From NCBI GenBank assembly GCA_963666975.2, contig CAXVYR010000004.1, positions 1,184,001 to 1,248,000 of the forward strand: DNA of 64,000 nt. Direction: 5' to 3'. Shown piece by piece: positions 2,642 to 63,025 of this stretch (positions within the stretch are counted from its first letter, which is position 1; each line of letters begins with the position of its first letter). The position numbers and the translations under genes were made by a program. The stretch is from Terriglobia bacterium (GTDB lineage Bacteria; Acidobacteriota; Terriglobia; 2-12-FULL-54-10). The notes under the pieces are model-generated. The model did not search any database. It saw only the letters and a list, made by a program, of their open reading frames with translations, and was not told the DNA's origin.

Positions 2642-3628
2642 CTACAATGTCACCAGCACCCGCCCGACTGCACGCTGGCCCTCGACGCACTCGTGGGCCT
2701 CAGCAATCGAGCGCAGCGGAAACCGCTCCGCGATCTTAAAACCTGGCCATTCCCCGTCAAGCGCCGCAGTCAGCCCTGCTGCGGCAACGGTCTTCGCTTC
2801 GGTCGCGAAGTCGTCGCTTCCGAGAAAGAACAAGCGGATATTCTTGAATACGAGCGGCCAGAACGGGATTGACGGCGACGGATCTCCTGTCGCGTACGTG
2901 GCGATGGAGCCACCCAGCGCAAGCAGTTCCACGTCGGTCGCAAGGTTTGCGTGAAAAGCAACCTCGACCACGTGATGGACGCCGTCGGGGGCGAGGGCGC
3001 GGATACGTTCAACCACCTCGTCGGCAGAGATCCCATCGGTGCGGACGACCTCGTGTGCGCCGGCCCGGTCTGCCACGGCTGCACCGCGCTCCGATCGGAT
3101 GGTCGCGATCACATGCGCCCCGCCGTACCGGGCGAGTCCGATGGCGCACGAGCCAACGGCGCCCGCCCCGCCCTGCACGAGCAAGGTGCGCCCCTCAACT
3201 GGACCGGCCACATGCACGGCACGATGGGCGGTAATTCCGGGAATGCCGAGGCACGCGCCTTGATCGAAAGAAACTTTAGGTGAAAGCGGAACGGCTTGGT
3301 CGGACGGCACGACCACATACTCTGCTGCCGTTCCGAACGGCCGGTAACTCTGTGCGCCGAAGCACCACACCCGCTCGCCTGCACGCCGTGCAGGAACGGC
3401 TTCGCCAACCCTGTCGATCCTACCCGCGCCGTCGCTGTGGGGAATCACCCTTGGGAAGGGCAACCCGACGCCAAAAGTGTCCTGGCGCTTTATCACATCA
3501 CCAGGGTTGACGCCGGAAGCGGTCATACGAATGCGCACCTCGTCCGGTCCCGGCTGAGGGTCTGGCATCTCGCCGACGATCAGCACTTGAGCGGCAGGCC
3601 CCTGCTTTTCGTACCAGGCTGCTTTCAC
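2642..3628 (-). CDS. NADPH:quinone oxidoreductase (zeta-crystallin/MDR family)
   Basis: MKAAWYE..., SGVNPGD, PHSDGAG, VQGGAGAVG, GRVLVTL; start is GTG at 3628, in frame with the track ORF. Confidence 0.88.
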   Translation of the reverse strand: MKAAWYEKQGPAAQVLIVGEMPDPQPGPDEVRIRMTASGVNPGDVIKRQDTFGVGLPFPRVIPHSDGAGRIDRVGEAVPARRAGERVWCFGAQSYRPFGTAAEYVVVPSDQAVPLSPKVSFDQGACLGIPGITAHRAVHVAGPVEGRTLLVQGGAGAVGSCAIGLARYGGAHVIATIRSERGAAVADRAGAHEVVRTDGISADEVVERIRALAPDGVHHVVEVAFHANLATDVELLALGGSIATYATGDPSPSIPFWPLVFKNIRLFFLGSDDFATEAKTVAAAGLTAALDGEWPGFKIAERFPLRSIAEAHECVEGQRAVGRVLVTL

Positions 3629-3659
3629 ATCGAAGCTCCGAGTGACGTTGGGAAGGGCG

Positions 3660-3722
3660 GGCGAACGGTGCGTTGAGCTGCGGACGGCGTGAGCCGGCCG
3701 TCGGCTCAAGCGGTTGCCAGGC
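3660..3722 (-). mobile_element. Degenerate attC-like site
   Basis: Minus strand GCCTGGCAACCGCTTGAGCCGACGGC...GCCGTCCGCAGCTCAACGCACCGTTCGCC hairpin overlapping the upstream gene's stop. Confidence 0.45.
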
Positions 3723-4404
3723 CGCCTCCGACAGTTGTGCCACGGCGCCACATAAGAGCACCCACGGAAATAACCCAAACGAGGATCAGTAAACTGGCGG
3801 GCATATTGACCGTCATGGCTAAGCTCGAAAAACCAGTGTACGCCATTACAACTCCCCCAACCAAAGTGGGGATACCTCCCAGCAGGGCAAGTACTGCGAC
3901 CCAGCGGGGATAGTGTCCGCTGTTCCATAACGCAATTCCGTACAGCGTAACTGTGAGGCCGAAGAACATACTCATGACACTGGCGAGCCCGACTTCGACC
4001 TGACGGACGCCGAATGCTGCATGAAACAAACCGGCCTTTTCCGAGGACTCCGCCCCAGCCCATGCGTCAACCATCACTTTAAGTGCGATGCCATCCACCG
4101 CCTGAAGAACGGCGGTCAGCGTCAAGCTAGCGATCGCTCCCCCAGAGGCGATGCGGGGAAGACCCGCTCGGCCACCGGAGTCCAACTCGTTGGCGAGCAC
4201 TAAGAGCGCGCCAACAATGAGAGCAACTCCAGCGAGCTGTGTTAAATGACTGGCAACCCAATGTCGATCGGCCGCGTACTCCGAGAAAGCAGCAACAGAG
4301 TCGTTCGGATCTGCCTGCATTGGGTGTAGCGAGGTTCCGGCAAAGAGAAGTACAGCACCAAGCACGGCGCTCATAGCGCCAAACTTATAACTACGACTAC
4401 TCAT
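3706..4404 (-). CDS. Hypothetical multi-pass membrane protein (DUF4386-like)
   Basis: About 6 hydrophobic segments; start MSSRSYKF at 4404 is inferred. Confidence 0.7.
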   Translation of the reverse strand: MSSRSYKFGAMSAVLGAVLLFAGTSLHPMQADPNDSVAAFSEYAADRHWVASHLTQLAGVALIVGALLVLANELDSGGRAGLPRIASGGAIASLTLTAVLQAVDGIALKVMVDAWAGAESSEKAGLFHAAFGVRQVEVGLASVMSMFFGLTVTLYGIALWNSGHYPRWVAVLALLGGIPTLVGGVVMAYTGFSSLAMTVNMPASLLILVWVISVGALMWRRGTTVGGGLATA

Positions 4405-4945: not shown

Positions 4946-7279
4946 TCAAGCAGATCGGGCGTTACTGATCTGCACCAATTGCGGTTCGGCGCGGACTGTG
5001 CCGAAGCTCAGGACATCCATGGGGCAGACGGTGACACAGACGCCGCAGCCGATGCAGGAGGAGTTGGCGTTGGTGATGGGCTCCTGTTTCAGCGCGAAGC
5101 TCATCACGTCGATGCCGACCAGGCAGTAGCGGCTGCACTCGCCGCAGGCGATGCACTTCTCGTTAGCGCTGATGCGGTATTGGCTGAACCGCAGCTTCTC
5201 GTAGAGGTGGCTCAGCAGCTCCATCATCTTGGCCAGCGGGCACCAGTAGCGGCACCAGACTTTCCCGCCCAGGAACGGGTAGAGCGTCAGCGGCAGAATG
5301 CCCACCAGCCAAATGTCTGCGACAATGCGATAAGCGTATAGCCCCCGTTCGGCGGGCGTACGGAGAGCCTCGAACACGTCCCGGCCCAGCATCATGACCG
5401 TGATGAGGACCGCCGCGATAAAGACCACCAAGGTCATCTTCTTCTCCCAGCGATGGCTGGCTTTTCCCTTCGGCGCCAAGTGGCGCCAGCGGTCGCCCAG
5501 CGTTTCGGCCAGCCCGCCGCAGCCGCAGATCCACGAACAGTAGCGTTTGCCGTGCCAGACGACCATCACCGGGATGATCCCAAAGGCCAGCACAACCCCC
5601 CAGATAATCCAGATCTGATGAGGGTCATAGAAGAACGTGTAGAAGAACAACGGCCAGGCGTAGACGATGCCGTAGGCGCGCCAGGGTTGCTCTGCGAACT
5701 GCGGGTCCGTGGCCAAGCGCTCGCCCACCCAGCGGTATTCAACCGCCCAGCGGAAGAGAAATTCCGGCACTATAAAAAAGAAAATCCACTGAAAACTGAT
5801 CAGGCTGGAGAAGCGCCAGATCTGGAATTTGTCCCGGCGGTCCAGGCCCCATCGCTTGAGCGCCTGGATTCCGAAAAAAGTCATCACCACGGTGTAGAAC
5901 ACCGTGTACCAGAATTGCAAGGGGCGGTCGGCGAATCTAAATAGCTCGTAAGCCCAACCGGTGTAGGGCCAAAATTCCTGCCCCGCACCCAGTTTGATGC
6001 CGTAGAGGGAATAAAAGCCGAAGAAGCCCGTGCCCAACCACGCCCAGCGTTGGCCGCGCACGGCCGTCGCCAACAGACCGGCGAAGGCCCCCGCCGCCAC
6101 CACGCCGCCAAGCCACTGGGGGATCTGCTGTACCAACTCCATCGAAGCGTTGCCCCCCAGCGCCCACAGGCCGAGCAAGGTGGCCAGCGTCAATAGGGCC
6201 GAGCGGGCCATACTGCCCGACCATTCATTTTCCATCTTCAACCCCAGCGACTTCAGAAACGCGGTCGGAACTTCAGAGCCGATCAGCACGAAGGCGTGGT
6301 CATAGGGGAATTTCTCGGTGGTCTGCTTGCCGTCTTTTTCGATTTGGAGGGTGGCCTCTCGGTCGCCGAACTCAGTGACCTGGGAGTTGAAGAGGGGCTT
6401 GATAGACCCGCTGCCGATCGCTTCCTGGAGCTGTCGCTCGTTGTCTTTGAAAATCCGGTAGAGCTGCTGGCCGCGATAGCTGAGCGTAACCTGGTTGCGC
6501 TGGCTCAAGGTGAGGGCGGCCTCGGCGGCCGTGTTTCCCCCGCCGACCACCAGAATCCGCTCGTCGTGGTACTGCTTGGGGCTATAGAGGCGATGATAGA
6601 CTCGCTCCTGGTCCTCGCCCGGTACGACCAGCTTGCGCGGGTTTCCCCGTTGCCCGGTGGCGAGGATGACGTTGCGGGCCTTGTACTGCTTTCCCTGCTC
6701 GGTCGTGAGGGTAAAGCTGTCGTCTTTGTTGCGGGTGAGGGATTTCAACCCATCTCCGGTGCGGACATCCAGGCCGTTGTCGCGGATGATCTGGTGCCAG
6801 CGCCCGATGAGGTCTTCCTTGGTGGCGCCGTCCAGCCAGAGTTTGCCCTTGGGCGGGACTTGGTCCGGCTCGGCGTAAATCCACTTTCCCTCCGGGAAGT
6901 CTTCAATGGTGTTGGCGATTTTGTTTTTTTCGAGGACCACGCACCGGAGGCCTTTGTCGGTGGCCGCCAGCGCCGCGTTCAGCCCGGCCGCCCCGGCGCC
7001 GACCACGACGGCGTCATAGGCCTCCGTGTCGTTCGATCCGGTGTCGCGCTGGCGGCCTTGCTGACCGCCGTGCTGACCGCCATACTGACCAATGATTTGC
7101 TCGATCACCTCCACGCCCTGTTCCATCGCCAGCTTAATCACCGGCGCCCCAGCCAAGTCCCCGATCACGTACAGGCCACGGAGATTCGATTCTCGTTTGG
7201 AGTCCATCTGCGGCCGTCGTGTGGGCATGTTGGCGGTTTCGAAGATTCCCTCGAACCACCGCTGGAGTTTGGTGAGCAT
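4946..7279 (-). CDS. FAD/NAD(P)-dependent oxidoreductase (TrxR-like) fused to a NapH/MauN-type membrane polyferredoxin
   Basis: GAGAAG, ATG and GGGNTA motifs; many TM helices; YCSWICGCG and WCRYWCP motifs; two CxxCxxCxxxC clusters; start MLTKLQ at 7279 is inferred. Confidence 0.8.
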   Translation of the reverse strand: MLTKLQRWFEGIFETANMPTRRPQMDSKRESNLRGLYVIGDLAGAPVIKLAMEQGVEVIEQIIGQYGGQHGGQQGRQRDTGSNDTEAYDAVVVGAGAAGLNAALAATDKGLRCVVLEKNKIANTIEDFPEGKWIYAEPDQVPPKGKLWLDGATKEDLIGRWHQIIRDNGLDVRTGDGLKSLTRNKDDSFTLTTEQGKQYKARNVILATGQRGNPRKLVVPGEDQERVYHRLYSPKQYHDERILVVGGGNTAAEAALTLSQRNQVTLSYRGQQLYRIFKDNERQLQEAIGSGSIKPLFNSQVTEFGDREATLQIEKDGKQTTEKFPYDHAFVLIGSEVPTAFLKSLGLKMENEWSGSMARSALLTLATLLGLWALGGNASMELVQQIPQWLGGVVAAGAFAGLLATAVRGQRWAWLGTGFFGFYSLYGIKLGAGQEFWPYTGWAYELFRFADRPLQFWYTVFYTVVMTFFGIQALKRWGLDRRDKFQIWRFSSLISFQWIFFFIVPEFLFRWAVEYRWVGERLATDPQFAEQPWRAYGIVYAWPLFFYTFFYDPHQIWIIWGVVLAFGIIPVMVVWHGKRYCSWICGCGGLAETLGDRWRHLAPKGKASHRWEKKMTLVVFIAAVLITVMMLGRDVFEALRTPAERGLYAYRIVADIWLVGILPLTLYPFLGGKVWCRYWCPLAKMMELLSHLYEKLRFSQYRISANEKCIACGECSRYCLVGIDVMSFALKQEPITNANSSCIGCGVCVTVCPMDVLSFGTVRAEPQLVQISNARSA

Positions 7280-7295
7280 TGTGCTGAATTGTGTT

Positions 7296-7829
7296 TTATT
7301 GGATGAACTGCTGCTTGCGCCAGCGGACGGCCTCGGATTCAAACGCCGGGATCGTCTGTCCGCCGCAGCCCAGGCAAGCGTCCCCGGAAGGGTGGTTGTA
7401 GTAGCCGCAGTGGGAACACTCCTCGGAATAGTGGGTGCACGGCACTTTCCGAAGGCCGCGAGGAATGCCGGCAGGAAATTGTCCGGCATCGCCCGGTGCG
7501 CGAGTCAGCAGGATCAGATAGCCCGCCGCATTCAGAAAAAACCCCAGAAAGAACCACGGAATCGGCGATAGAGCCTTATGCACCGCTGCTTGCGCGCAGG
7601 CTCCGGCGAAGATTAACCCGGCCAGGACGTAAACTCCGAGCATGAGCCATGCCGGCGACAGCGGCTGGCTGCTGGGTCCCTGCTCGCTGAACAGCGCGCC
7701 GCTCGGGCGGTCCGGGTCCGCTGGGGATTGCTGCGCCAGCGCAGCAAAAGGATTGATCAGGAAAACAGCAGTCAGGAAAACTGCGGCAAGACACAAAATA
7801 GAAAGACGCAAGCTTCTCGGCCCTCTCAT
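7296..7829 (-). CDS. Hypothetical membrane protein with C-terminal zinc ribbon
   Basis: Signal/TM segments and CSHC...CLGC; AGGAG before ATG 7829. Confidence 0.7.
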   Translation of the reverse strand: MRGPRSLRLSILCLAAVFLTAVFLINPFAALAQQSPADPDRPSGALFSEQGPSSQPLSPAWLMLGVYVLAGLIFAGACAQAAVHKALSPIPWFFLGFFLNAAGYLILLTRAPGDAGQFPAGIPRGLRKVPCTHYSEECSHCGYYNHPSGDACLGCGGQTIPAFESEAVRWRKQQFIQ

Positions 7830-12248: not shown

Positions 12249-13671
12249 TTAGGGAAAGTTCGCGACACTTCGGGCCTCTCCTGTTAACTCCAGAATATGC
12301 ATGCCGGTGTTGGCGCGGTCAACTATGTAAATATACCCGCGGTCGTCCACTTCAACGTTATTGGTCTGGATGGCCACTTTGCACCGCTCCTCCCCGTCCA
12401 TTGTCACACAACGCCGGTCCGTATTCGCGGTGGTGGCCGGTATGTAGTAAGCGATCTCTTTTGGGGTGGAAGGGGTCCCGAATGTCCAGCGCGCGGACCC
12501 CCGCATTGAAGTAGGAGACAAAAACGATCCGCTTGTAATAGATCGGCGTGAAGGACTCGTTGGTGGCGTGCGGGCCGAAGCGCCCGCCCCGCTGGCAGAA
12601 TTCGCCCTCTGACTCAGGCACCTGATAGGTCGATACAGGCGTGGGCTTGGTTGGGTCCGTGATATCGATGAAGAATACAGCGTGACGGAACTCCTGGCAC
12701 TCATTCTGGGTGGATTCCGATGGCATCACAATGAAGTCCCGAACTTTTCCATACAGGTTGTCCTTGAAATCGGGAATCTCAATCCCCAAGACGGGGAAGG
12801 TAGTATGCCCTCCCCATGCAGGATTCATGTCTATGCGGCCGATTTGGGGATAGAGCAGGTTTTCCGGCGTCGGCTCGGGAGCCCCTCGCAGAAGTTTGTC
12901 CCGGTCTACGATCTGGATAATAGCGCCGCTCGATGAGCCGTAACCAAAGTAGACGCGGTCGTCCAGCACGATGGGTCCATGAAGGTCGGTGGGCACCTTC
13001 TCCATCTGCGAACCCGGCTCTTGGCCAACCAAACCGAAGTCCCGGATCAACACCGGCGCCTCCGGGTTGCTTAAGTCGAAAATTTTTGTTCCCCGGGCCC
13101 GCCAATCCGGGTCAGCGGAAACAATGTAAGCAATTCCGGTATCGCACTCCCACCAATTTTTGTGGATGCTCTTCATCCCGTCGACTACCTTGCTCAGGAA
13201 TTGCGGCTCGCTCGGAGAGGTGACGTTCCAGAGCTCGTGCCCCGCCGAGCCGATGCTGCGGAGCAGGTAGGCCTTCCCATCGATCATACAGGCGCGGTTC
13301 ATCTGCGCGCCGCTGCTCCCCCTGGTGATTGTTGCATCGCCGGGGATATGGGAAAGGCCCTGCGGGTTCCGAGGGTGGGTCACGTCCACGATCATCGTGC
13401 CGTTCGGCTCGACCGTCCCGCTCACGGGGTTAAAGGAGCTGCCACCCAGCAAGCCGATATAGGCGATCCAGCGGTTACCCTGCTGCAGGATGACGGGCTG
13501 GTAGGCGGAGCGGCTCTGGAGATCATGAAAACCCACGACTCGCATGTTCTTGCCTTCCGATCCGTGGCCTCCCAGACTTTGCTGCGCCGCCGCATCGCCC
13601 GCGCTCCAGGCCAACACGACGAAAAACACTGCTGTGGAAAAAAGCAATCCTCCCGGCAATCGTCGCGTCAT
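12249..13671 (-). pseudogene. Secreted LVIVD-repeat beta-propeller protein, +1 frameshift near 12460 (possibly a sequence error)
   Basis: Repeated IVDVT.P/IFDLS.P/FIDIT.P units; ALDIRDPFHPK continues as EIAYYIPA in another frame at the A4 run 12459-12462; GGAGGAG RBS before 13671. Confidence 0.8.
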
Positions 13672-13773
13672 CGTCTCTCCTCCCCCGGACACTTGAATGA
13701 GCACCTGAATCGCTGCATAAATTATCGGGCGTCTGATGCCTCGTCCTATCACTCGCCGGTACCCGCAGCCGCG

Positions 13774-16038
13774 TTAGAAAATTTCCGGGAAATAATACGT
13801 CATCACGGCATTGAGATACTTGTCCGAGACGATGACGGTCTTGTTCTTGGCGTCAAAAGTCACCCCGCGCGGCTGGCGCAACATCCCCTTTGGCCCTCCA
13901 ATCTTCCACCGCGGCGGAACGTCCCCGTTGTCCTCGAGGATGCTCCATACGCCCACAAAGGCCTCATTGGACGAAAGTCTTTCGCCCGGCCCGGACCCCG
14001 GACCCGGGACAGCCGCCAGGACCAAGCCACGGGGCGGATAGACCTGGATTCGCTGCGTTCGTGTGATACCTGTCTTGGGGCCGCTGATCACAGCTTTCGG
14101 TTTCACGTTACCCTCGTCGGTGCGGTTAAAAATCATCAGACCCCTTCTGCTGTCTCCTCCTTCCTCCCAGCTCGCCGACACGACAAGCAAGTTGTGGACC
14201 GGGTCCACGGCGACCTCGGTGGGACTCCACGGCGTGCCGGGGCCCTCCAGGATCCGGACCGGCGCTGCATTTCCATTTGCCTCCCGCGCAAAAACCAGGA
14301 CCCGGCTTGCCCCTCCCGCCTCAGGAACGAAAATCTCGTTGTGCACCGGATCGACCGTCACCTTGTCGGGATTCCTTAACAGCGTGCGGAGCCCCTGGAT
14401 TACCCGGATCGGGGACTCCTCCCCATCGGCTCCTCCACGGAACGTCATCACCGACTGGGAGAACGGCTGCGGCACCGTGATTTCATCATGGATCTCATCG
14501 TAGAAAATGCCGTGCATCGTCCGGCCCAACATTGTTTTTTGTCCCTCAATCTTCCGGTTCGCTGTGGCTCCCCCTTCCGCCAGCCTGGCGAAAGCCGCAA
14601 TCTGCGGGTGGGCCACTCAGTTGGGCACCAGTATCTCTGCCCGCTTGGTGTCATAGGTTACAGCGCCCGGATTGCCAATCATCAAAGACGGCTCGCCAAT
14701 CGGCGCGCTGCGGATCGTGCGCAGAGGCGGCGTGTCGCCCTCCGCTGTGGGTTTATAGACGGTCGCCGAGTGATTGCCGAAGTTGGCCACCCACAGCTCG
14801 TCATTCTTAGTGTCCAAAAACAGGCCCGTGGGATTTTTGATGCCGCTGTTGGGGCCTTTCAACACCCGAATGGGAGCCACGTCACCATTGGCAGTCGCGC
14901 GGAAGACCAGGACGGAATCTCCCTGGTCATTGGCAACAAACAGTTCCCCTCGCTCCGGGTCAACGGCAATTCCCGCCGCCCAGTTCAATTGGGTCCGGGA
15001 ACCTTCGATCACCCGCAACGGAGCAGCATTCCCGCTCGCGGTCCGGGAGTACACCGTGATCGAAGGCGGCACCGTCGTGCCCGAACCGGGGATCGCTACG
15101 TCCTCGCCCTTCGGCCAATTCGCTTTCCCTTTGGCTCTTCCGAGAGTTCCCTCCCCGTCGGCGTCCGCGCGATGTTGCCGGACCGAGCCGTGATTGGTGA
15201 CGTAGATGAGATTATTCTTCGTATCCACGGCAATGCCGTGGGGGTCCGCCAGGCGAGTGCGATCTCCCTGAAGCAGGCGGATGGGGGCATCGTCGCCTTC
15301 GGCCATCTTGTTGTATACCACCACCGCGTTGTCGTGCTGGATGGTGAGGAAAAGCTCCTCCCGCTGTTCATCCACCGTAATGCCAAAAGTCCCGTGCGGC
15401 GTGGCCAGCTGCCGCGTCGGAGGCACGTCCCCGTTGGCCTGGCGGTCAAAAATCACCAGTGTGTCCACCGTGTCGTTGTTGACGGCGTATATATCCCCGC
15501 TGGCCGGGTCAATATACAGGCCGCACTGAAATTCGATTCTCGTGTGTTCTCCCCCGATCTTGCGCTTTGGTTCGGTCATGGCCGCGTTGGGGGGCGTATT
15601 GTCCAGCCGGTCGTAGACCATAATGTTGAAGAAGCTTTCGTCCGTCATGACAACTTCCCCGCGCACCGGGTCCACCGCAACAGCGCTGTAGGAGGAATAG
15701 GGATCCCGAATGACCCGAAGCGGCGCTCTCGGGGCGGTTTCCTCGCCGCTGTTCTGAGCGACAGTCCGTGCCCCGCTGCCAGCGGAAAGCCTTTCCTGCC
15801 GCATGGCGGCCAGCAGCGTAGTGCCGGTGCTGGCGGGCACCCACTCGCACATTACCCCGTCCATCGCCGGCAAAGGCTCCACGGAGATCAGTTGAGGAGA
15901 CCCAGTAGGCCTCCGAGCCAAGACCGACAGCCTTTCGCCGGTGACCCCGCTGGATAGCACGAATCCGGCAAGAGTCCCGGTCACTGCGAGAATTGCAATC
16001 AGCAATGCCTTCCGTCGCAAATAAGATGCTTGCGCCAT
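13774..16038 (-). CDS. Exported 12-blade NHL-type double beta-propeller, 754 aa, with in-frame TGA at 14617-14619 (candidate selenocysteine, U474)
   Basis: Track ORFs 14617..16038 and 13774..14616 abut in the same frame; ...EILVPN-TGA-VAHPQIAAF... falls inside blade 7; SECIS-like hairpin downstream; no SD before the GTG at 14616. Confidence 0.75.
14574..14594 (-). promoter_or_regulatory. Candidate bacterial SECIS hairpin
   Basis: CUUUCGCCA-GGC-UGGCGGAAG, 9-bp stem, apical G at +32/+33 after UGA. Confidence 0.6.
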
Positions 16039-16145
16039 GTCAGTTCCTCCTCCTTTAATCTTTTAACCTTAGTTCGCAATCGGGTCGCTTCTAAGTTCCG
16101 TCAGCGGCTTCCAACTCATCGGCGATGGCGATATTGTCCCGCGCG

Positions 16146-17594
16146 GAGGGTGTCCCATACATAGTTGAAGGTTGAACGGCGGTTCGGCCCGAATCGAATA
16201 GAATCGGGCCAAGCCTAAATCCTATAGAAGGAGAACCGCCGAATGAAGGGAAAATATCACGTTTTGGAACTGGGTTCCAAGGGAGCCGAAGAAACCATCC
16301 AGAAGTTTTGCCAAACCAACGGACAGATGCTGTTGCCGGTGGTGGATCTGATCACGGAGGCGCGTCTGGCGGTGGATGAGGTGATTGATCGGGCCGGGCG
16401 AGGTTTGATTGAAACGATTCTGAGCATGAGCGCAGAGCAAATCGCGGGGCCAAAGAGTCCCGGGAAGGCGAGCGGAGAGGTGCGCTGGCATGGCCGGCAA
16501 TTGGGGAGGGTGAAACTGGCCGATCGCCAGCTGCGGGTGGAGCGGCCCCGGCTGCGCCGGAAGGGCGGAGGGGAAGAAGCGGTGCCGGCCTACGAAGCAC
16601 TGCGGAAAAGCGAGAAGACGGGCGAGGAGATGTTCGAGGCACTGTTGAAAGGGGTTTCGACGCGGAACTACCGCGAGGTGATCCCGGAGATGGCCAACAG
16701 CGCTGGGGTGTCGAAGTCTCAGGTGAGCCGGGAAGCGGCCGAGCAAGGAGCGCGGCGGCTGGAAGAACTGTTGGCGCGGCGCTGGGAGGAGGTCGAGATT
16801 CTGGTGATTTACCTGGACGGAATGCGGTTCGGCTCCCACCACGTCATCAGCGCCGTGGGCGTGGACAGCGAGGGCCGCAAGCATGTGCTGGGGATTCAAC
16901 TGGGCGCGACCGAAAACGCCGCTGCGGTGAAAGACCTTCTCACCCGCCTGCGCCAGCAAGGTTTGCGCACGGATCAGCGCTATCTGTTTGTGATCGACGG
17001 CGCCAAAGCGCTCCGCGCGGGGATCGAGGAAGTATTCGGCAGCAATCAGCTGGTGCAGCGTTGCCGTACTCATAAGCTGCGCAACGTGGCTGAGCGGTTA
17101 CCAAAGGGCGACAAAATGCTGGCGAATCAGGTGCGGTCGCTGATGCGCGCCGCCTGGCGATTGCCCCAAGCCGAGGAAGGCATCGTGCGCATAAAAAAGC
17201 TCGCTGGGATGATCGAGTGCGATCATCCGGCAGCAGCCGCCAGCTTGCGCGAAGGGTTGGAGGAGACCTTTACGATCAATCGAGCCGACGTTCCTCCCAG
17301 CCTCCACCGCTGCCTGGCAACCACGAACCTCATCGAGAGCCCGCAGTCGGGCGTGCGGAAAAAGACTGGCAATGTTTGCCGCTGGCGCGACGGCGAGATG
17401 ACGTTGCGCTGGGTGGCAGGAGCGTTTCTGCTGACCGAGAAGAATTTCCGGAAGATCATGGGTTATCACGATCTCTGGGCTTTGGCATCGATTCTCGGCC
17501 GAAGTCCAAACGCTGCTTCCTCTCACAAGGAGGAAGTGGCGTAATATGAACTCAACCCGCCGTCCCAACCTGCAACTGAGTTTGGGACACCTTC
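16146..17594 (+). mobile_element. IS256-family element, copy 1 (1449 bp)
   Basis: Imperfect TIRs GAGGGTGTCCCATACATAGTTGAAGGTT / GAAGGTGTCCCAAACTCAGTTGCAGGTT; 8-bp TSD CCCGCGCG at 16138-16145 and 17595-17602. Confidence 0.95.
16243..17544 (+). CDS. IS256-family (Mutator) transposase
   Basis: YLDG, VIDG, QRC..HK.RN and TTN.IES motifs. Confidence 0.95.
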   Translation: MKGKYHVLELGSKGAEETIQKFCQTNGQMLLPVVDLITEARLAVDEVIDRAGRGLIETILSMSAEQIAGPKSPGKASGEVRWHGRQLGRVKLADRQLRVERPRLRRKGGGEEAVPAYEALRKSEKTGEEMFEALLKGVSTRNYREVIPEMANSAGVSKSQVSREAAEQGARRLEELLARRWEEVEILVIYLDGMRFGSHHVISAVGVDSEGRKHVLGIQLGATENAAAVKDLLTRLRQQGLRTDQRYLFVIDGAKALRAGIEEVFGSNQLVQRCRTHKLRNVAERLPKGDKMLANQVRSLMRAAWRLPQAEEGIVRIKKLAGMIECDHPAAAASLREGLEETFTINRADVPPSLHRCLATTNLIESPQSGVRKKTGNVCRWRDGEMTLRWVAGAFLLTEKNFRKIMGYHDLWALASILGRSPNAASSHKEEVA

Positions 17595-19323: not shown

Positions 19324-20860
19324 GAAGGTGTCCCAAACTCAGTTGCAGGTTGGGACGGCGGGTTGAGTTCATATTACGCCACTTTCTCCTTGTGAGAGGA
19401 AGCAGCGTTTGGACTTCGGCCGAGAATCGATGCCAAAGCCCAGAGATCGTGATAACCCATGATCTTCCGGAAATTCTTCTCGGTCAGCAGAAACGCTCCT
19501 GCCACCCAGCGCAACGTCTCGCCGTCGCGCCAGCGGCAAACATTGCCAGTCTTTTTCCGCACGCCCGACTGCGGGCTCTCGATGAGGTTCGTGGTTGCCA
19601 GGCCTCATCTCGCCGTCGCGCCAGCGGCAAACATTGCCAGTCTTTTTCCGCACGCCCGACTGCGGGCTCTCGATGAGGTTCGTGGTTGCCAGGCAGCGGT
19701 GGAGGCTGGGAGGAACGTCGGCTCGATTGATCGTAAAGGTCTCCTCCAACCCTTCGCGCAAGCTGGCGGCTGCTGCCGGATGATCGCACTCGATCATCCC
19801 AGCGAGCTTTTTTATGCGCACGATGCCTTCCTCGGCTTGGGGCAATCGCCAGGCGGCGCGCATCAGCGACCGCACCTGATTCGCCAGCATTTTGTCGCCC
19901 TTTGGTAACCGCTCAGCCACGTTGCGCAGCTTATGAGTACGGCAACGCTGCACCAGCTGATTGCTGCCGAATACTTCCTCGATCCCCGCGCGGAGCGCTT
20001 TGGCGCCGTCGATCACAAACAGATAGCGCTGATCCGTGCGCAAACCTTGCTGGCGCAGGCGGGTGAGAAGGTCTTTCACCGCAGCGGCGTTTTCGGTCGC
20101 GCCCAGTTGAATCCCCAGCACATGCTTGCGGCCCTCGATGTCCACGCCCACGGCGCTGATGACGTGGTGGGAGCCGAACCGCATTCCGTCCAGGTAAATC
20201 ACCAGAATCTCGACCTCCTCCCAGCGCCGCGCCAACAGTTCTTCCAGCCGCCGCGCTCCTTGCTCGGCCGCTTCCCGGCTCACCTGAGACTTCGACACCC
20301 CAGCGCTGTTGGCCATCTCCGGGATCACCTCGCGGTAGTTCCGCGTCGAAACCCCTTTCAACAGTGCCTCGAACATCTCCTCGCCCGTCTTCTCGCTTTT
20401 CCGCAGTGCTTCGTAGGCCGGCACCGCTTCTTCCCCTCCGCCCTTCCGGCGCAGCCGGGGCCGCTCCACCCGCAGCTGGCGATCGGCCAGTTTCACCCTC
20501 CCCAATTGCCGGCCATGCCAGCGCACCTCTCCGCTCGCCTTCCCGGGACTCTTTGGCCCCGCGATTTGCTCTGCGCTCATGCTCAGAATCGTTTCAATCA
20601 AACCTCGCCCGGCCCGATCAATCACCTCATCCACCGCCAGACGCGCCTCCGTGATCAGATCCACCACCGGCAACAGCATCTGTCCGTTGGTTTGGCAAAA
20701 CTTCTGGATGGTTTCTTCGGCTCCCTTGGAACCCAGTTCCAAAACGTGATATTTTCCCTTCATTCGGCGGTTCTCCTTCTATAGGATTTAGGCTTGGCCC
20801 GATTCTATTCGATTCGGGCCGAACCGCCGTTCAACCTTCAACTATGTATGGGACACCCTC
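19324..20860 (-). mobile_element. IS256-family element, copy 2 (1537 bp), with an internal duplication
   Basis: Same TIRs as copy 1; 8-bp TSD CCTAAAGG at 19316-19323 and 20861-20868. Confidence 0.95.
19369..20763 (-). pseudogene. IS256 transposase with C-terminus frameshifted by a 91-bp-period tandem duplication
   Basis: Nearly identical to copy 1 up to RWRDGEM; 19517-19603 is repeated at 19608-19694. Confidence 0.85.
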
Positions 20861-22013: not shown

Positions 22014-24269
22014 ATGCCGCCTTTAGTCCCCGTGGCTCAGCGAAGCTCCAGTCTCCCTTCGCAGAGATTCAGTCCCGCCCTGATCCTACCGGTTTTACTG
22101 ACGGGACTCATCGCCGCCACGGTTGTGATCACCTTCAGCATTTCCTTTAGCGGGCTCGTCTTCCCGGGGCCGCTGGCAGCCCATGCGTCGGCCGGTGTCG
22201 GGCTTGCGCTGCTTGGGACCGTCATTCTCAGCGTAGTGATTCCCTGTTTCAGCACCTATCCCGGTACGATTGGCGGCATCATCTCCTTGCCTGCCATTGC
22301 GCTTGGAGTGATTGCCACCTCGCTCGCCTCCACGGTGAGCAGCGACCAACTCCTGCCGACCATTTTCGTTTCCATCATGGCAGCCGGACTGTTTACCGGA
22401 CTGGCCATGTACCTTTTCGGGGTCTTCGATCTCGGCAAGATCGGGCAATACGTGCCGTACCCCGTGATCGGCGGCTTTATTGCCGGGCTGGGGATCATCC
22501 TGGTAAAGAATTCGCTTTCCTTCGGGCTCTCAGCCGATTTTAGCCTGGCCCGGATCGCTTCGCTCGACGCCGGCGGCATTCGGTTTCTCCTCTCCAACCG
22601 GGATCTGCTGCTGATTTCGCTTGTCGCTCTGGTCGGCATCTGGATATGGACTGCTGAAATGGCTGGATCCTCGAAATACAACATCCCTCTCATCCTGGCG
22701 GCGGTGACATCTGGCTTTTGGGTGATTACCTGGTATTTCGGCATCACGCCGGGGGAGTTACGGGAAGGGGGCTGGCTTCTGGGACCGTTTCCGGAAGGCC
22801 GCTTCTGGACACCGGCACAGAACTTTGCAGCGCTGGCCAATGCCGATTGGTTCGCCTTGTTTTGGGAGATACCTAAAATTCCGGTGGTCTTGCTGCTCGT
22901 TCTGATTCCTGCGCTGATGGATGCAAGCAGCTTGGAACTGGCCGTGAAGCAGGACATCGATCCCAATCGCGAGATCAAAGTTGCCGGTGCCGGAAACATT
23001 CTGTGCGGGCTGGCCGGCGGATTTCTGGGAGCAGCTTCCTTCAGCGCCACGACCATGGTCGCCAGGGCGCGTGTTCCTTACCGCATTGTGGGCCTGGTTT
23101 CGGCAACGTGCTGCAGTCTCGTTTTCTTTTTCGGGGCGGAAACGATATCGTACTTGCCGAAGTTTCCCATTGCCGGATTGTTGTTCTACATCGGCATTGA
23201 CTTCATGCGCGAGTGGCTCTATTCCTCCTACGGCAAAGTCTCGAAAGTTGACTACGCGACGATCCTGGCGGTTTTCTTTGTCGTCATCGTCTTCGGGTTC
23301 ATGGAGGGATTTTTCGTTGGCCTTGTTCTGGGATTTATTTTCTTCGTGCTGACCTACAGCAGCCTGCCCGTTGTACGCTATGCGACCACGGGAGCCTACC
23401 AGTTCAGCAATGTCGAGCACCCGGAACAAGACCGGAACTACCTGAAGAGCGTCGGTGAGCGCACGGTCATATTCAAACTGCAAGGGTTCATTTTTTTTGG
23501 AACCGCGCGAAGACTGCTCGACAGGGTGCGCGCGAAGATGACGGCGGCGGAACTGCCCCCGCTGGACTATCTGGTGCTCGATTTCAATCTAGTGGACGGC
23601 CTGGACTCTTCTGCGATGGTCAATTTCCAGAAGATCGTGCAGTACGCAGAGACCGGAGGATTTCTCCTCGTCCTTTCCCACTGTTCTCCGGAACTCACCA
23701 CCCGCTTCGCAAAACACGGGATTCGGAACGCTGATTCGCAGCACGTCGAACTCTTCCCCGACATGGACCGCTCCCTCGAATGGGTGGAACAAAGGCAAAT
23801 TGCGGTGCGGGACGCCAAAGGGCCGACGGGTGGAGGAAGTGGAAGCTCCCTCAAGGATCTATTCTCCTCGGCGGCGATCTATGACGCCTTACTCTCCTAC
23901 TGTGAAACTTGCACTTTCTCTTCCGGAGATTTTTTGGTCCGGCAAGGAGAGGAGGCCAACGATATTTTTCTGGTCCAGGAGGGTGAGGTGTCTGTGTACT
24001 TGGAGGTCGCGGATGGCAACCGGATTCGGCTGCGCAAGTATCTCGCGGGCACGGTGGTCGGCGAGGTGGCCATTTTGCTCGGTATTCGGCGCACCGCCTC
24101 GGTGATCGCCGGCACCAACATGACGGCCTATCGGCTGTCGCGGACCGCGATGGCGAGGATGAAGACGGAGCGGCCTGAGATCGTCGTGGAATTTGAGGAA
24201 GCCCTGCTGAAAATGACTGCCGCGCGTCTCCAAGATGGCAACAGACTCCTTCGCGAGTTGGCTGACTAG
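22014..24269 (+). CDS. SulP/SLC26 anion permease with STAS and cNMP-binding domains
   Basis: PYPVIGGFIAG; STAS motifs LQGFIFFG and DSSA; C-terminal cNMP domain GE.A.L...RTASV. Confidence 0.92.
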   Translation: MPPLVPVAQRSSSLPSQRFSPALILPVLLTGLIAATVVITFSISFSGLVFPGPLAAHASAGVGLALLGTVILSVVIPCFSTYPGTIGGIISLPAIALGVIATSLASTVSSDQLLPTIFVSIMAAGLFTGLAMYLFGVFDLGKIGQYVPYPVIGGFIAGLGIILVKNSLSFGLSADFSLARIASLDAGGIRFLLSNRDLLLISLVALVGIWIWTAEMAGSSKYNIPLILAAVTSGFWVITWYFGITPGELREGGWLLGPFPEGRFWTPAQNFAALANADWFALFWEIPKIPVVLLLVLIPALMDASSLELAVKQDIDPNREIKVAGAGNILCGLAGGFLGAASFSATTMVARARVPYRIVGLVSATCCSLVFFFGAETISYLPKFPIAGLLFYIGIDFMREWLYSSYGKVSKVDYATILAVFFVVIVFGFMEGFFVGLVLGFIFFVLTYSSLPVVRYATTGAYQFSNVEHPEQDRNYLKSVGERTVIFKLQGFIFFGTARRLLDRVRAKMTAAELPPLDYLVLDFNLVDGLDSSAMVNFQKIVQYAETGGFLLVLSHCSPELTTRFAKHGIRNADSQHVELFPDMDRSLEWVEQRQIAVRDAKGPTGGGSGSSLKDLFSSAAIYDALLSYCETCTFSSGDFLVRQGEEANDIFLVQEGEVSVYLEVADGNRIRLRKYLAGTVVGEVAILLGIRRTASVIAGTNMTAYRLSRTAMARMKTERPEIVVEFEEALLKMTAARLQDGNRLLRELAD

Positions 24270-62566: not shown

Positions 62567-63025
62567 TCACGGTTGGAGCGCCGCCAGCACTTCCTGAACG
62601 TGGCCCTCGACATGCACCTTTGGAAATATCTTCTGGACCTTCCCGGAAGCGTCAATTAGGAATGTGGTGCGCTCCACGCCGAGAACCTTTTTCCCGTGCA
62701 TGTTTTTTTCCTTCAGCACGCCGTATTCCTTGGCCACTTTCCGGTCCACATCGCACAACAGCGGAAAAGGCAGGGAGTATTTCTGCTTGAACTGGTCTTG
62801 CAGCAGCGGAGTGTCGGGACTCACGCCAACCACGGCGGCTCCCAGCTTTTGAAAATCAGCGATTGCATCACGGAACCCGGATGCCTCGGCGGTTCACCCC
62901 GGAGTATCGGCCATGGGGTAAAAGAAAAGGACCAGAGGATGTCCCTGGTAGTCGGTGAGGTTTACCGTGGTGTTTTGGTCGTTCGTCAGTTGAAAGCCTG
63001 GTGCTGGTTGTCCTGCTTCGAGCAT
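62567..63025 (-). CDS. bcp: Bcp/PrxQ peroxiredoxin, selenocysteine form (U44, TGA 62894-62896), 152 aa
   Basis: MLEAGQPAPGF...FYPMADTPG-TGA-TAEASGFRD...GVSPD...RTTFLID; TGA at the peroxidatic Cys position; GAGG RBS. Confidence 0.9.
62865..62884 (-). promoter_or_regulatory. Candidate bacterial SECIS hairpin of bcp
   Basis: GCAUCCGG-GUU-CCG(U)GAUGC; loop G at +18 after UGA. Confidence 0.7.

Follow-up and report, generated by a model that had tools for sequence, protein, structure and literature searches.

We analysed a 64,000-nucleotide stretch of the genome of a Terriglobia bacterium (phylum Acidobacteriota; contig CAXVYR010000004.1, positions 1,184,001 to 1,248,000). We call this whole stretch the window, and positions below are those of the window. 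On its minus strand, two open reading frames (ORFs) of 473 and 280 amino acids (14617..16038 and 13774..14616) lie in one frame, and a TGA codon at 14617-14619 is the sole break between them. The first ORF begins with an ATG at 16038, and a strong Shine-Dalgarno site (GGAGGAGG, 16046..16053, minus strand), read directly from the sequence, lies 7 nucleotides on its 5' side; the second ORF closes with a TAA at 13776-13774. If the TGA is read through, the two ORFs form a gene at 13774..16038 (754 codons plus the stop) in which the TGA is codon 474 and the junction peptide is ...YDTKRAEILVPN-U-VAHPQIAAFAR..., where U is selenocysteine (Sec). A GTG comes right after the TGA, and inspection of the sequence found no ribosome-binding site ahead of this GTG. 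A preliminary description of this DNA had noticed the shared frame, the single TGA between the ORFs and the lack of a Shine-Dalgarno site at the second ORF, and we confirmed all of these from the sequence.

It is most likely that both ORFs are one gene for an exported protein of 754 residues, either periplasmic or membrane-anchored. The extent of this gene is indicated by the reading frames, by matches to Pfam, by an AlphaFold2 model, and by full-length homologues of about 733 amino acids that have cysteine in place of the TGA. Furthermore, codon 474 is very probably recoded to selenocysteine. The preliminary description had proposed such a fused 754-residue selenoprotein, and the proposal is supported by the alignment with cysteine, by the recurrence of the TGA in other genomes, by covariation in a hairpin that follows it, and by a model with 12 propeller blades. 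In the mechanism that we propose, the UGA at codon 474 would be recoded by a bacterial selenocysteine insertion sequence (bSECIS), a hairpin inside the coding sequence. SelB, loaded with Sec-tRNA(Sec), would attach to this hairpin during a pause of the ribosome at this codon, and the residue inserted at position 474 would be selenocysteine.

Cysteine or a stop at the same codon in homologues

A homologue search with residues 380-620 of the fused protein found 2736 proteins at E <= 0.001, and we aligned the best 120. Most of these are full-length (about 725-770 residues), and they are 50-63% identical to the query around the site. The column of codon 474 contains cysteine in 119 of the 120 and tryptophan in the other one (P0089). 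Similarly, in a 55-sequence alignment (A1), Cys474 is one of 35 invariant columns. The preliminary description had argued that cysteine at this position in homologues would support a selenoprotein while variable residues would point to a simple nonsense mutation; cysteine is what we found, and no variable residues. The lone tryptophan (in the context …LVPNWVAHPQIAAF…) may be either a TGA that a gene caller translated as tryptophan under another genetic code or a real TGG.

Some predicted proteins are cut exactly where the window gene has its TGA. We searched 1.84 billion cluster representatives for split proteins and examined the best 150 of the 6964 representatives that matched. Twenty-six of the 150 end exactly at residue 473 (...ILVPN, ...ILAPN and similar) and 6 begin at residue 475 (M/V-x-H/F-P-Q/A-I-A), while 75 run across the site and 39 are fragments of other kinds. 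The last 4 are two N-terminal and two C-terminal pieces that end or start slightly off the site. Random nonsense mutations would not be expected to place a stop at the same codon in sequences that are only 40-60% identical to the query.

The TGA in related genomes

We scanned a collection of species-representative genomes with a DNA pattern (AAYTGAGTNNNNCAYCCNCARATHGC) that requires a TGA within N-TGA-V-x-H-P-Q-I-A. This pattern has one match in the window, where none is expected in shuffled sequence, and it matched at least 118 loci in the collection, from 43 assemblies among the matches listed. The preliminary description had named conservation of the TGA across genomes as support, and every one of the 118 listed loci carries the TGA in the wider context YD..R..ILVPN-TGA-V.HPQIA.FAR.A, which the pattern did not specify. 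In loci with enough flanking sequence, the open frame extends over about 400-570 codons 5' and about 240-305 codons 3' of the TGA. A change of frame at the junction, which had been listed as a sign that the fusion is wrong, did not appear: frameshifts affect just 3 of the 80 long loci (L004 on both sides of the TGA, and L059 and L076 after it), and these are pseudogenes or assembly indel errors. The normal terminal stop codon is TGA in many of these loci.

The window gene is one member of a large family of soil Acidobacteriota. Forty of the 43 assemblies have Acidobacteria/Acidobacteriota, Terriglobia, Bryobacterales/Bryobacteraceae, Solibacteraceae, Candidatus Sulfopaludibacter or Vicinamibacterales labels, and the other 3 are labelled Deltaproteobacteria, Verrucomicrobiia and Candidatus Binatia (one each). 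Three assemblies hold at least 12, at least 12 and at least 13 copies. Tandem arrays of paralogues are frequent (L037-L039, L026-L027, L059-L060, L052/L058, L117-L118 and others).

To place the TGA forms among their relatives, we used a FastTree phylogeny with 123 rows: 69 TGA forms (full-length loci only) and the 54 cysteine forms of alignment A1. Sec and Cys forms interleave in this tree, with 19 changes of state (shuffled mean 40.3); 17 of these changes are required by branches with good support. The window gene groups with L045, to which it is 91% identical, and with L035. Repeated exchange of Sec and Cys is described as typical of selenoprotein families in the accessible part of an earlier survey (PMC1794560).

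A conserved RNA hairpin after the TGA

We examined synonymous sites in 116 distinct TGA-form sequences. (The search pattern ended at codon +7 and left the frozen third positions free.) Codons +4 to +13 after the TGA are almost frozen at the nucleotide level: Pro +4 is CCG in 115/116 sequences, Ala +7 is GCG in 113/116, Phe +9 is TTC in 113/116, Ala +10 is GCC in 113/113, Arg +11 is AGG in 109/115, Leu +12 is YTG in 99/99, and Ala +13 is GCG in 113/116. Elsewhere, conserved residues keep free third positions. At other conserved codons of TGA-form genes this freedom amounts to 1.4-1.8 bits, as for Arg -8 (1.46 bits), Val -3 (1.67), Gly +25 (1.73) and Arg +32 (1.68). As another comparison, AGG is used at three other conserved arginine codons in only 4/116, 15 and 10 sequences.

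This part of the gene includes a bSECIS-like hairpin of 9 base pairs, CUUUCGCCA-GGC-UGGCGGAAG, at 14574..14594 on the minus strand. Its loop Gs are at +32/+33 as counted from the base after the UGA, where the preliminary description had put them, and its apical GGY loop starts 31 nucleotides past the UGA. The 21-nucleotide hairpin alone has a predicted folding energy of -11.1 kcal/mol (z = -3.06), a value matched by 2 of 200 shuffles. According to the accessible part of a 2026 review (PMC13188914), bSECIS elements have a stem of 4-16 base pairs, a loop of 3-9 nucleotides with G[G|U] and an optional closing pair, a distance of 16-37 nucleotides from UGA to loop, and a minimum free energy of at most -7.5 kcal/mol. 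The hairpin falls within all of these limits, with its 9 base pairs, its GGY loop (A-GGY-U if the closing pair is open), its spacing of 31 nucleotides and its energy.

The hairpin is conserved with covariation, which we measured in a 114-sequence alignment (A2) with 500 shuffles. RNAalifold predicts the same 9-base-pair stem independently from this alignment. In the real alignment, 95.8% of the hairpin cells are paired (90.6 +/- 0.5% in shuffles), 54 cells are changed on both sides (22.9 +/- 3.1 in shuffles), and the covariation score is 0.234 (0.152 in shuffles). None of the 500 shuffles reached any of these three values; we take this as supportive and not as an exact probability, as the sequences are related, with many paralogues from the same genome, and shuffle controls overstate the significance. 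When we slid the 3' partners by 1-3 columns, pairing fell to 32-59% (maximum 58.8%). The second stem pair (columns 33-51) links the third base of codon +8 to that of codon +14, both of them wobble positions, and is formed by CG in 38 sequences, GC in 21, AU in 20, UA in 7, UG in 4 and GU in 2, with 22/114 unpaired. Also, at columns 36-48, L011 and L051 (from different assemblies) combine a synonymous change of TTC to TTT with a synonymous change of GCG to GCA, which turns a C-G pair into U-A.

Between the UGA and this stem lies a smaller hairpin or conserved spacer, CCGCA-GAU-UGCGG, at 14595..14607 on the minus strand (+10..+22). Alone, its 13 nucleotides have a predicted energy of -5.3 kcal/mol (z = -3.63), which 6 of 200 shuffles match. 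The preliminary description had listed this hairpin too. It is present at the position given and its sequence is conserved, but as a paired structure it fared less well: we found no covariation in the 114 sequences, and pairing is broken in some of them (the outer pair in 32/114 and the inner pair in 15/114).

The protein sequences provide a control, because the stem core encodes residues 484-487, which are outside of the search pattern. We compared the amino-acid entropy of the 69 TGA forms with that of the 54 Cys forms. At residues 484, 485, 486 and 487, the entropy is 0.22, 0.00, 0.80 and 0.00 bits in the TGA forms versus 2.53, 1.93, 2.39 and 0.93 bits in the Cys forms. In contrast, residues 488-498 are equally variable in both. 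Since residues 484-487 are frozen in TGA forms only, the peptide appears to be fixed only where the RNA element is needed.

Architecture of the fused protein

The fused protein matches the NHL repeat (PF01436 in Pfam) with 45.4 bits, against a cut-off of 20, and so is an NHL-repeat protein by this measure. It also has weak matches to lactonase-type propellers, and Pfam's Lactonase family is reached (24.6 bits versus a cut-off of 21.7), but only along a single stretch of about 85 residues.

We built an AlphaFold2 model of the fused chain from 55 aligned sequences. The mean predicted local distance difference test score (pLDDT) is 89.4 and the predicted template modelling score (pTM) is 0.84. 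The model is a tandem beta-propeller with 12 four-stranded, NHL-like blades. The first strands of blades 1-7 begin before residue 474 (at 117, 171, 217, 266, 354, 403 and 461) and those of blades 8-12 begin after it (at 512, 561, 605, 664 and 723), in agreement with the 12 blades that had been counted in the preliminary description, 7 before the TGA and 5 after. The 12 blades are probably two six-bladed propellers. In the model, residue 474 is in a turn of blade 7, between the second strand (468-472) and the third strand (479-484), and a position in a loop of blade 7 had been expected as well. Thus, a genuine stop at this codon would halve a blade.

We compared the model with known structures and the sequence with known families. 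A structure model of the fused chain was among the checks named in the preliminary description; apart from the 12 blades, its outcome is that the best fold matches are tandem-propeller proteins. Foldseek against the Protein Data Bank (PDB) found generic tandem propellers alone (2ymu, LRP6 E3E4 and Pwp2/UTP proteins; template modelling scores of 0.25-0.31), which is consistent with two tandem propellers and gives no functional lead. A profile search against PDB sequences found only NHL domains, namely those of TRIM2, TRIM3, Brat and NHLRC2. The best match is the NHL domain of TRIM3 (E = 2e-9).

At the N-terminus, residues 1-30 (15949..16038, minus strand) form a basic and hydrophobic segment that the model shows as a helix (residues 2-28), and this is a putative signal peptide or membrane anchor. 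By eye, similar hydrophobic stretches are present at the N-termini of the full-length homologues that were inspected. We considered export by the twin-arginine (Tat) route and rejected it, as just 23 of 105 N-termini have the motif of RRx followed by hydrophobic residues. The N-terminal segment is followed by a low-confidence linker of about 70 residues (at about residues 30-100), which carries a conserved Cys64-x-Trp motif.

A predicted site around residue 474

Across the 123 sequences of the tree, Arg466, Cys/Sec474, Arg506 and His509 are invariant (123/123), while 117 sequences have Thr507 and 114 have Gln500. In the model, Arg506, Thr507 and His509 are located where blade 7 connects to blade 8. 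In propellers with four-stranded blades, the loop between strands 2 and 3 and the connection from blade to blade share the face that usually bears binding sites or active sites.

From this predicted arrangement, we give about even chances to a catalytic role for the selenocysteine, as a redox centre or a nucleophile. Alternatively, Sec474 may be a ligand for a metal or an oxyanion. If the role is catalytic, the protein would be an extracytoplasmic enzyme in which the selenocysteine is aided by the histidine and the arginines and possibly acts on an anionic substrate. Cys64, in the Cys-x-Trp motif of the linker, could be a resolving partner for the selenocysteine. Its conservation among Cys forms is at least 90%, and 48 of the 69 TGA forms have it (16 others have gaps).

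Another cysteine, Cys172 (about 15523-15525, minus strand), was tried as a partner specific to Sec forms and rejected: it is present in 50/69 TGA forms versus 10/54 Cys forms, but a test on independent pairs gave p = 0.25-0.5. The difference may reflect shared ancestry.

Probable selenocysteine use in the host, and other explanations

The window contains a second gene with an in-frame TGA. It encodes a bcp-type peroxiredoxin (62567..63025, minus strand) whose peroxidatic position is occupied by the TGA (62896-62894; motif TPGU), and the AhpC-TSA domain of Pfam spans the TGA (4.6e-41). Such a gene had been mentioned in the preliminary description as a sign that the host decodes selenocysteine, and we verified both its position and the domain match across the TGA. 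Peroxiredoxins with a TxxU motif are an experimentally verified family of selenoproteins (PMC13188914, accessible part). The gene has a bulged hairpin at 62884-62865, GCAUCCGG-GUU-CCG(U)GAUGC, with a predicted energy of -8.8 kcal/mol (z = -2.61) and a loop that starts 17 nucleotides past the UGA. As this peroxiredoxin is of a known selenocysteine type, its presence in the window is a sign that selenocysteine is used by the host. Standard ORF calling misses or shortens this peroxiredoxin gene. The window also encodes an 847-amino-acid protein (4946-7489, minus strand) with pyridine-nucleotide-disulphide oxidoreductase domains and a C-terminal 4Fe-4S dicluster domain. This architecture is common to some selenoprotein families, and no in-frame TGA was seen in the gene.

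Several points weigh against recoding to selenocysteine or against the site that we predict. There is no selA, selB, selD or tRNA-Sec in the 64-kb window and no selenocysteine machinery in the 80 long loci; specifically, ARAGORN found no tRNA-Sec in the window or in these loci, and Rfam at its gathering threshold found one tRNA only in the window. Because the DNA pattern presupposed a TGA, forms with TAA or TAG at the site are invisible to these data. Over longer sequences around the TGA, the predicted fold is no stronger than in shuffles (86 nucleotides, z = -0.14, with 89/200 shuffles as good; 52 nucleotides, z = -0.78, with 41/200 as good), so the folding energy of this single GC-rich sequence proves little and the support for the hairpin is comparative. 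In the comparative data, most stem pairs are near-invariant, and the covariation comes mainly from columns 33-51, plus two double changes. The fetched loci and plasmids contained no DNA of Cys forms for a control at synonymous sites. The case for selenium in the protein is entirely computational, and the proposed function comes from conservation and the general topology of propellers alone. Finally, His477, which is part of the local motif, was rejected as an essential ligand because it is kept in only 31 of the 54 Cys forms.

These points leave room for other explanations. The absence of visible selenocysteine machinery from the window and the 80 long loci would fit with a UGA that is read through by other means: a suppressor tRNA for opal (UGA) codons that inserts cysteine or serine, such as an allo-tRNA or a selC*-type tRNA(Cys), or a near-cognate tRNA that inserts tryptophan. 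The result would be a full-length protein that is free of selenium. In the accessible part of their paper, Mukai et al. describe tRNAs with an unusual cloverleaf from Acidobacteria that may act as nonsense suppressors, and a Sec-tRNA-like tRNA(Cys) from deltaproteobacteria that may be an opal suppressor (PMC5389517); the tryptophan of P0089 at the Sec column also fits with readthrough. However, the same text does not report selC* tRNAs from Acidobacteria, and because many genes of the family end in TGA, this codon is not generally reassigned in these organisms. A conserved and covarying hairpin within the bSECIS rules also implies the need for a SelB-type factor instead of a general suppressor, and the peroxiredoxin indicates that the host does use selenocysteine. 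We therefore think that readthrough without the selenocysteine system is very unlikely.

Another explanation takes the TGA as a true stop, with the 473-residue piece and a second piece of up to 280 residues assembling into a split propeller. Gene callers do predict the halves as separate proteins, and the codon after the TGA is GTG, a possible restart codon, in 106 of 116 genes; but the other 10 have GTC or GTA, which are not start codons, and the window's GTG lacks a ribosome-binding site. The stop would fall between two strands of blade 7 in the model. Many homologues that lack the TGA are single chains with cysteine exactly at the position of the stop. A split propeller would also leave the frozen synonymous sites and the covarying hairpin unexplained, and we regard it as highly improbable. 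That the gene is a pseudogene with a nonsense mutation, next to an IS256-type transposase, is effectively refuted. It is true that a transposase ORF lies directly upstream (16243-17544) and that the related L004, L059 and L076 have frameshifts, but the window gene has no frameshift and is close to L045, which is intact. The same TGA is found in all 118 of the listed homologous loci, from 43 assemblies. Purifying selection is seen on both halves, with residues after the TGA conserved while synonymous sites vary freely, and the 40-60% divergence among related loci argues against copies of one dead mobile sequence. Neither a split gene nor a pseudogene accounts for the cysteine in homologues, the frozen synonymous sites, the covariation or the recurrence of the TGA at 118 or more loci.

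Neighbouring genes

Downstream of the propeller gene, a 464-amino-acid ORF with a hydrophobic N-terminal segment (12358-13752, minus strand) begins 22 nucleotides past the stop codon. It has no Pfam family, and its match to a "choice-of-anchor B" model is below threshold (28.5 bits versus a cut-off of 100). Among related loci, this ORF recurs beside L045 alone, and an M23 peptidase is found beside L015 and L035 alone. We clustered 849 ORFs from the flanks and found no conserved operon partner among them: the sole recurrent neighbours are tandem paralogues of the same family (13 loci). The next-largest clusters comprise at most 5 loci, and one of these resembles, by eye, the end of a TonB-dependent receptor.

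Upstream are two ORFs for Mutator/IS256-family transposases, of 433 amino acids (16243-17544, plus strand) and 464 amino acids (19369-20763, minus strand). They have opposite orientations and may bracket a mobile segment. Two other ORFs in the window were considered as paralogues of the propeller gene and rejected as unrelated: the 473-amino-acid ORF at 2642-4063 encodes a zinc-type alcohol dehydrogenase, and a SulP transporter is encoded by the 751-amino-acid ORF at 22014-24269.

Novelty and comparison with known systems

The family is new to the accessible selenoprotein catalogues and to NCBIfam, although the recoding mechanism would be the ordinary bacterial one. In the accessible part of PMC13188914, neither the 119 families of Table 1 nor the text includes an NHL, propeller, YncE-like or lactonase-like entry. 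Terms for propeller selenoproteins are likewise absent from the accessible main texts of BSepDB, deep-Sep, the 2016 ISME J survey, a 2022 review and the 2006 Genome Biology survey, and from the supplements of deep-Sep and, as far as covered, of BSepDB. More broadly, our search of the literature found no NHL or propeller selenoprotein in accessible full texts (subscription journals and bioRxiv supplements were outside of this search). The fused protein (P0001) reaches no model in NCBIfam release 20, and its best score is 26.9 bits versus a cut-off of 440. The Cys homologues are named "beta-propeller fold lactonase family protein" or "DNA-binding beta-propeller fold protein YncE" by automatic labelling. 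We rejected both labels for the fused protein: it scores 21.7 bits against the NCBIfam cut-off of 400 for YncE and 15.8 bits against the cut-off of 370 for 6-phosphogluconolactonase/lactonase.

We see a somewhat better than even chance that this is the first beta-propeller family of selenoproteins: an exported enzyme of twelve blades whose Sec/Arg/His site is of an undescribed kind, with a dozen or more Sec paralogues in single genomes of Acidobacteriota from soil and peat (Terriglobia, Bryobacterales and Solibacteraceae). If so, standard annotation splits every copy, hundreds of genes are mis-annotated as pairs of truncated "hypothetical" or "lactonase-like" proteins, and abundant soil bacteria have been overlooked as selenoprotein-rich organisms. 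The extracytoplasmic chemistry of Acidobacteriota would then involve selenium in a way that has gone unappreciated. For this phylum, the 2006 survey listed only 4 selenoproteins, from 3 families (PMC1794560, accessible part), and estimates of its selenium use would rise sharply with at least 12-13 copies in some genomes. Most characterised selenoproteins have a thioredoxin-like fold (PMC13188914, accessible part), and a large extracytoplasmic propeller would join the selenoprotein folds. Furthermore, the roughly 19 Sec/Cys switches among 123 sequences would provide natural matched pairs for studying the benefit of selenocysteine over cysteine outside of the cytoplasm, and the SECIS sequence UUCGCC-AGGYU-GGCGRA would be a direct DNA signature for finding further members of the family.

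The Cys homologues belong to the same family. They share the length and architecture of the Sec forms and the invariant Arg466, Arg506 and His509, are 50-63% identical around the site, and have an invariant cysteine at the Sec column. They differ from the Sec forms in having a Cys codon in place of the TGA and in residues 484-487, which vary freely. The propellers of TRIM2, TRIM3, Brat and NHLRC2 have the NHL repeat signature in common with the window protein, but they are single six-bladed propellers of eukaryotes that bind RNA or protein, and the similarity covers only about 70-170 residues. We know of no catalytic cysteine or selenocysteine in these propellers.

Among selenoproteins, the TonB-dependent receptor of the FCYXU type, the MtrB/PioB-like beta-barrel and the multihaem ExtKL are, from the accessible parts of the sources, extracytoplasmic proteins outside of the thioredoxin fold with a single selenocysteine, as we propose for the window protein. 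Their folds are unrelated to it, none of them is a propeller, and P0001 matches none of their NCBIfam models. The selenocysteine peroxiredoxin of the window (Prx/bcp, PF00578, TxxU) has the host, the recoding principle and a triloop that starts with G in common with the propeller gene (GUU versus GGC). The peroxiredoxin has a thioredoxin fold and a peroxidatic function, unlike the propeller protein; it shows, by eye, no signal-like segment at its N-terminus, and its hairpin loop is 17 rather than 31 nucleotides past the UGA.

The type case for bacterial selenoprotein genes is fdhF of E. coli. Unlike the products of fdhF-type genes, the window protein is a beta-propeller, and not a molybdopterin enzyme or a thioredoxin fold. 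There is no UxxC or CxxU redox motif around its proposed selenocysteine (the local motif is N-U-V-x-H-P), and the spacing of 31 nucleotides is near the upper end of the usual bSECIS range. In other respects, the window gene resembles these genes: the UGA aligns with cysteine in homologues, the hairpin is immediately 3' and within the coding sequence, the small apical loop has a G followed by G or U, the spacing, stem and energy are within the published ranges, and Sec and Cys forms interchange in evolution.

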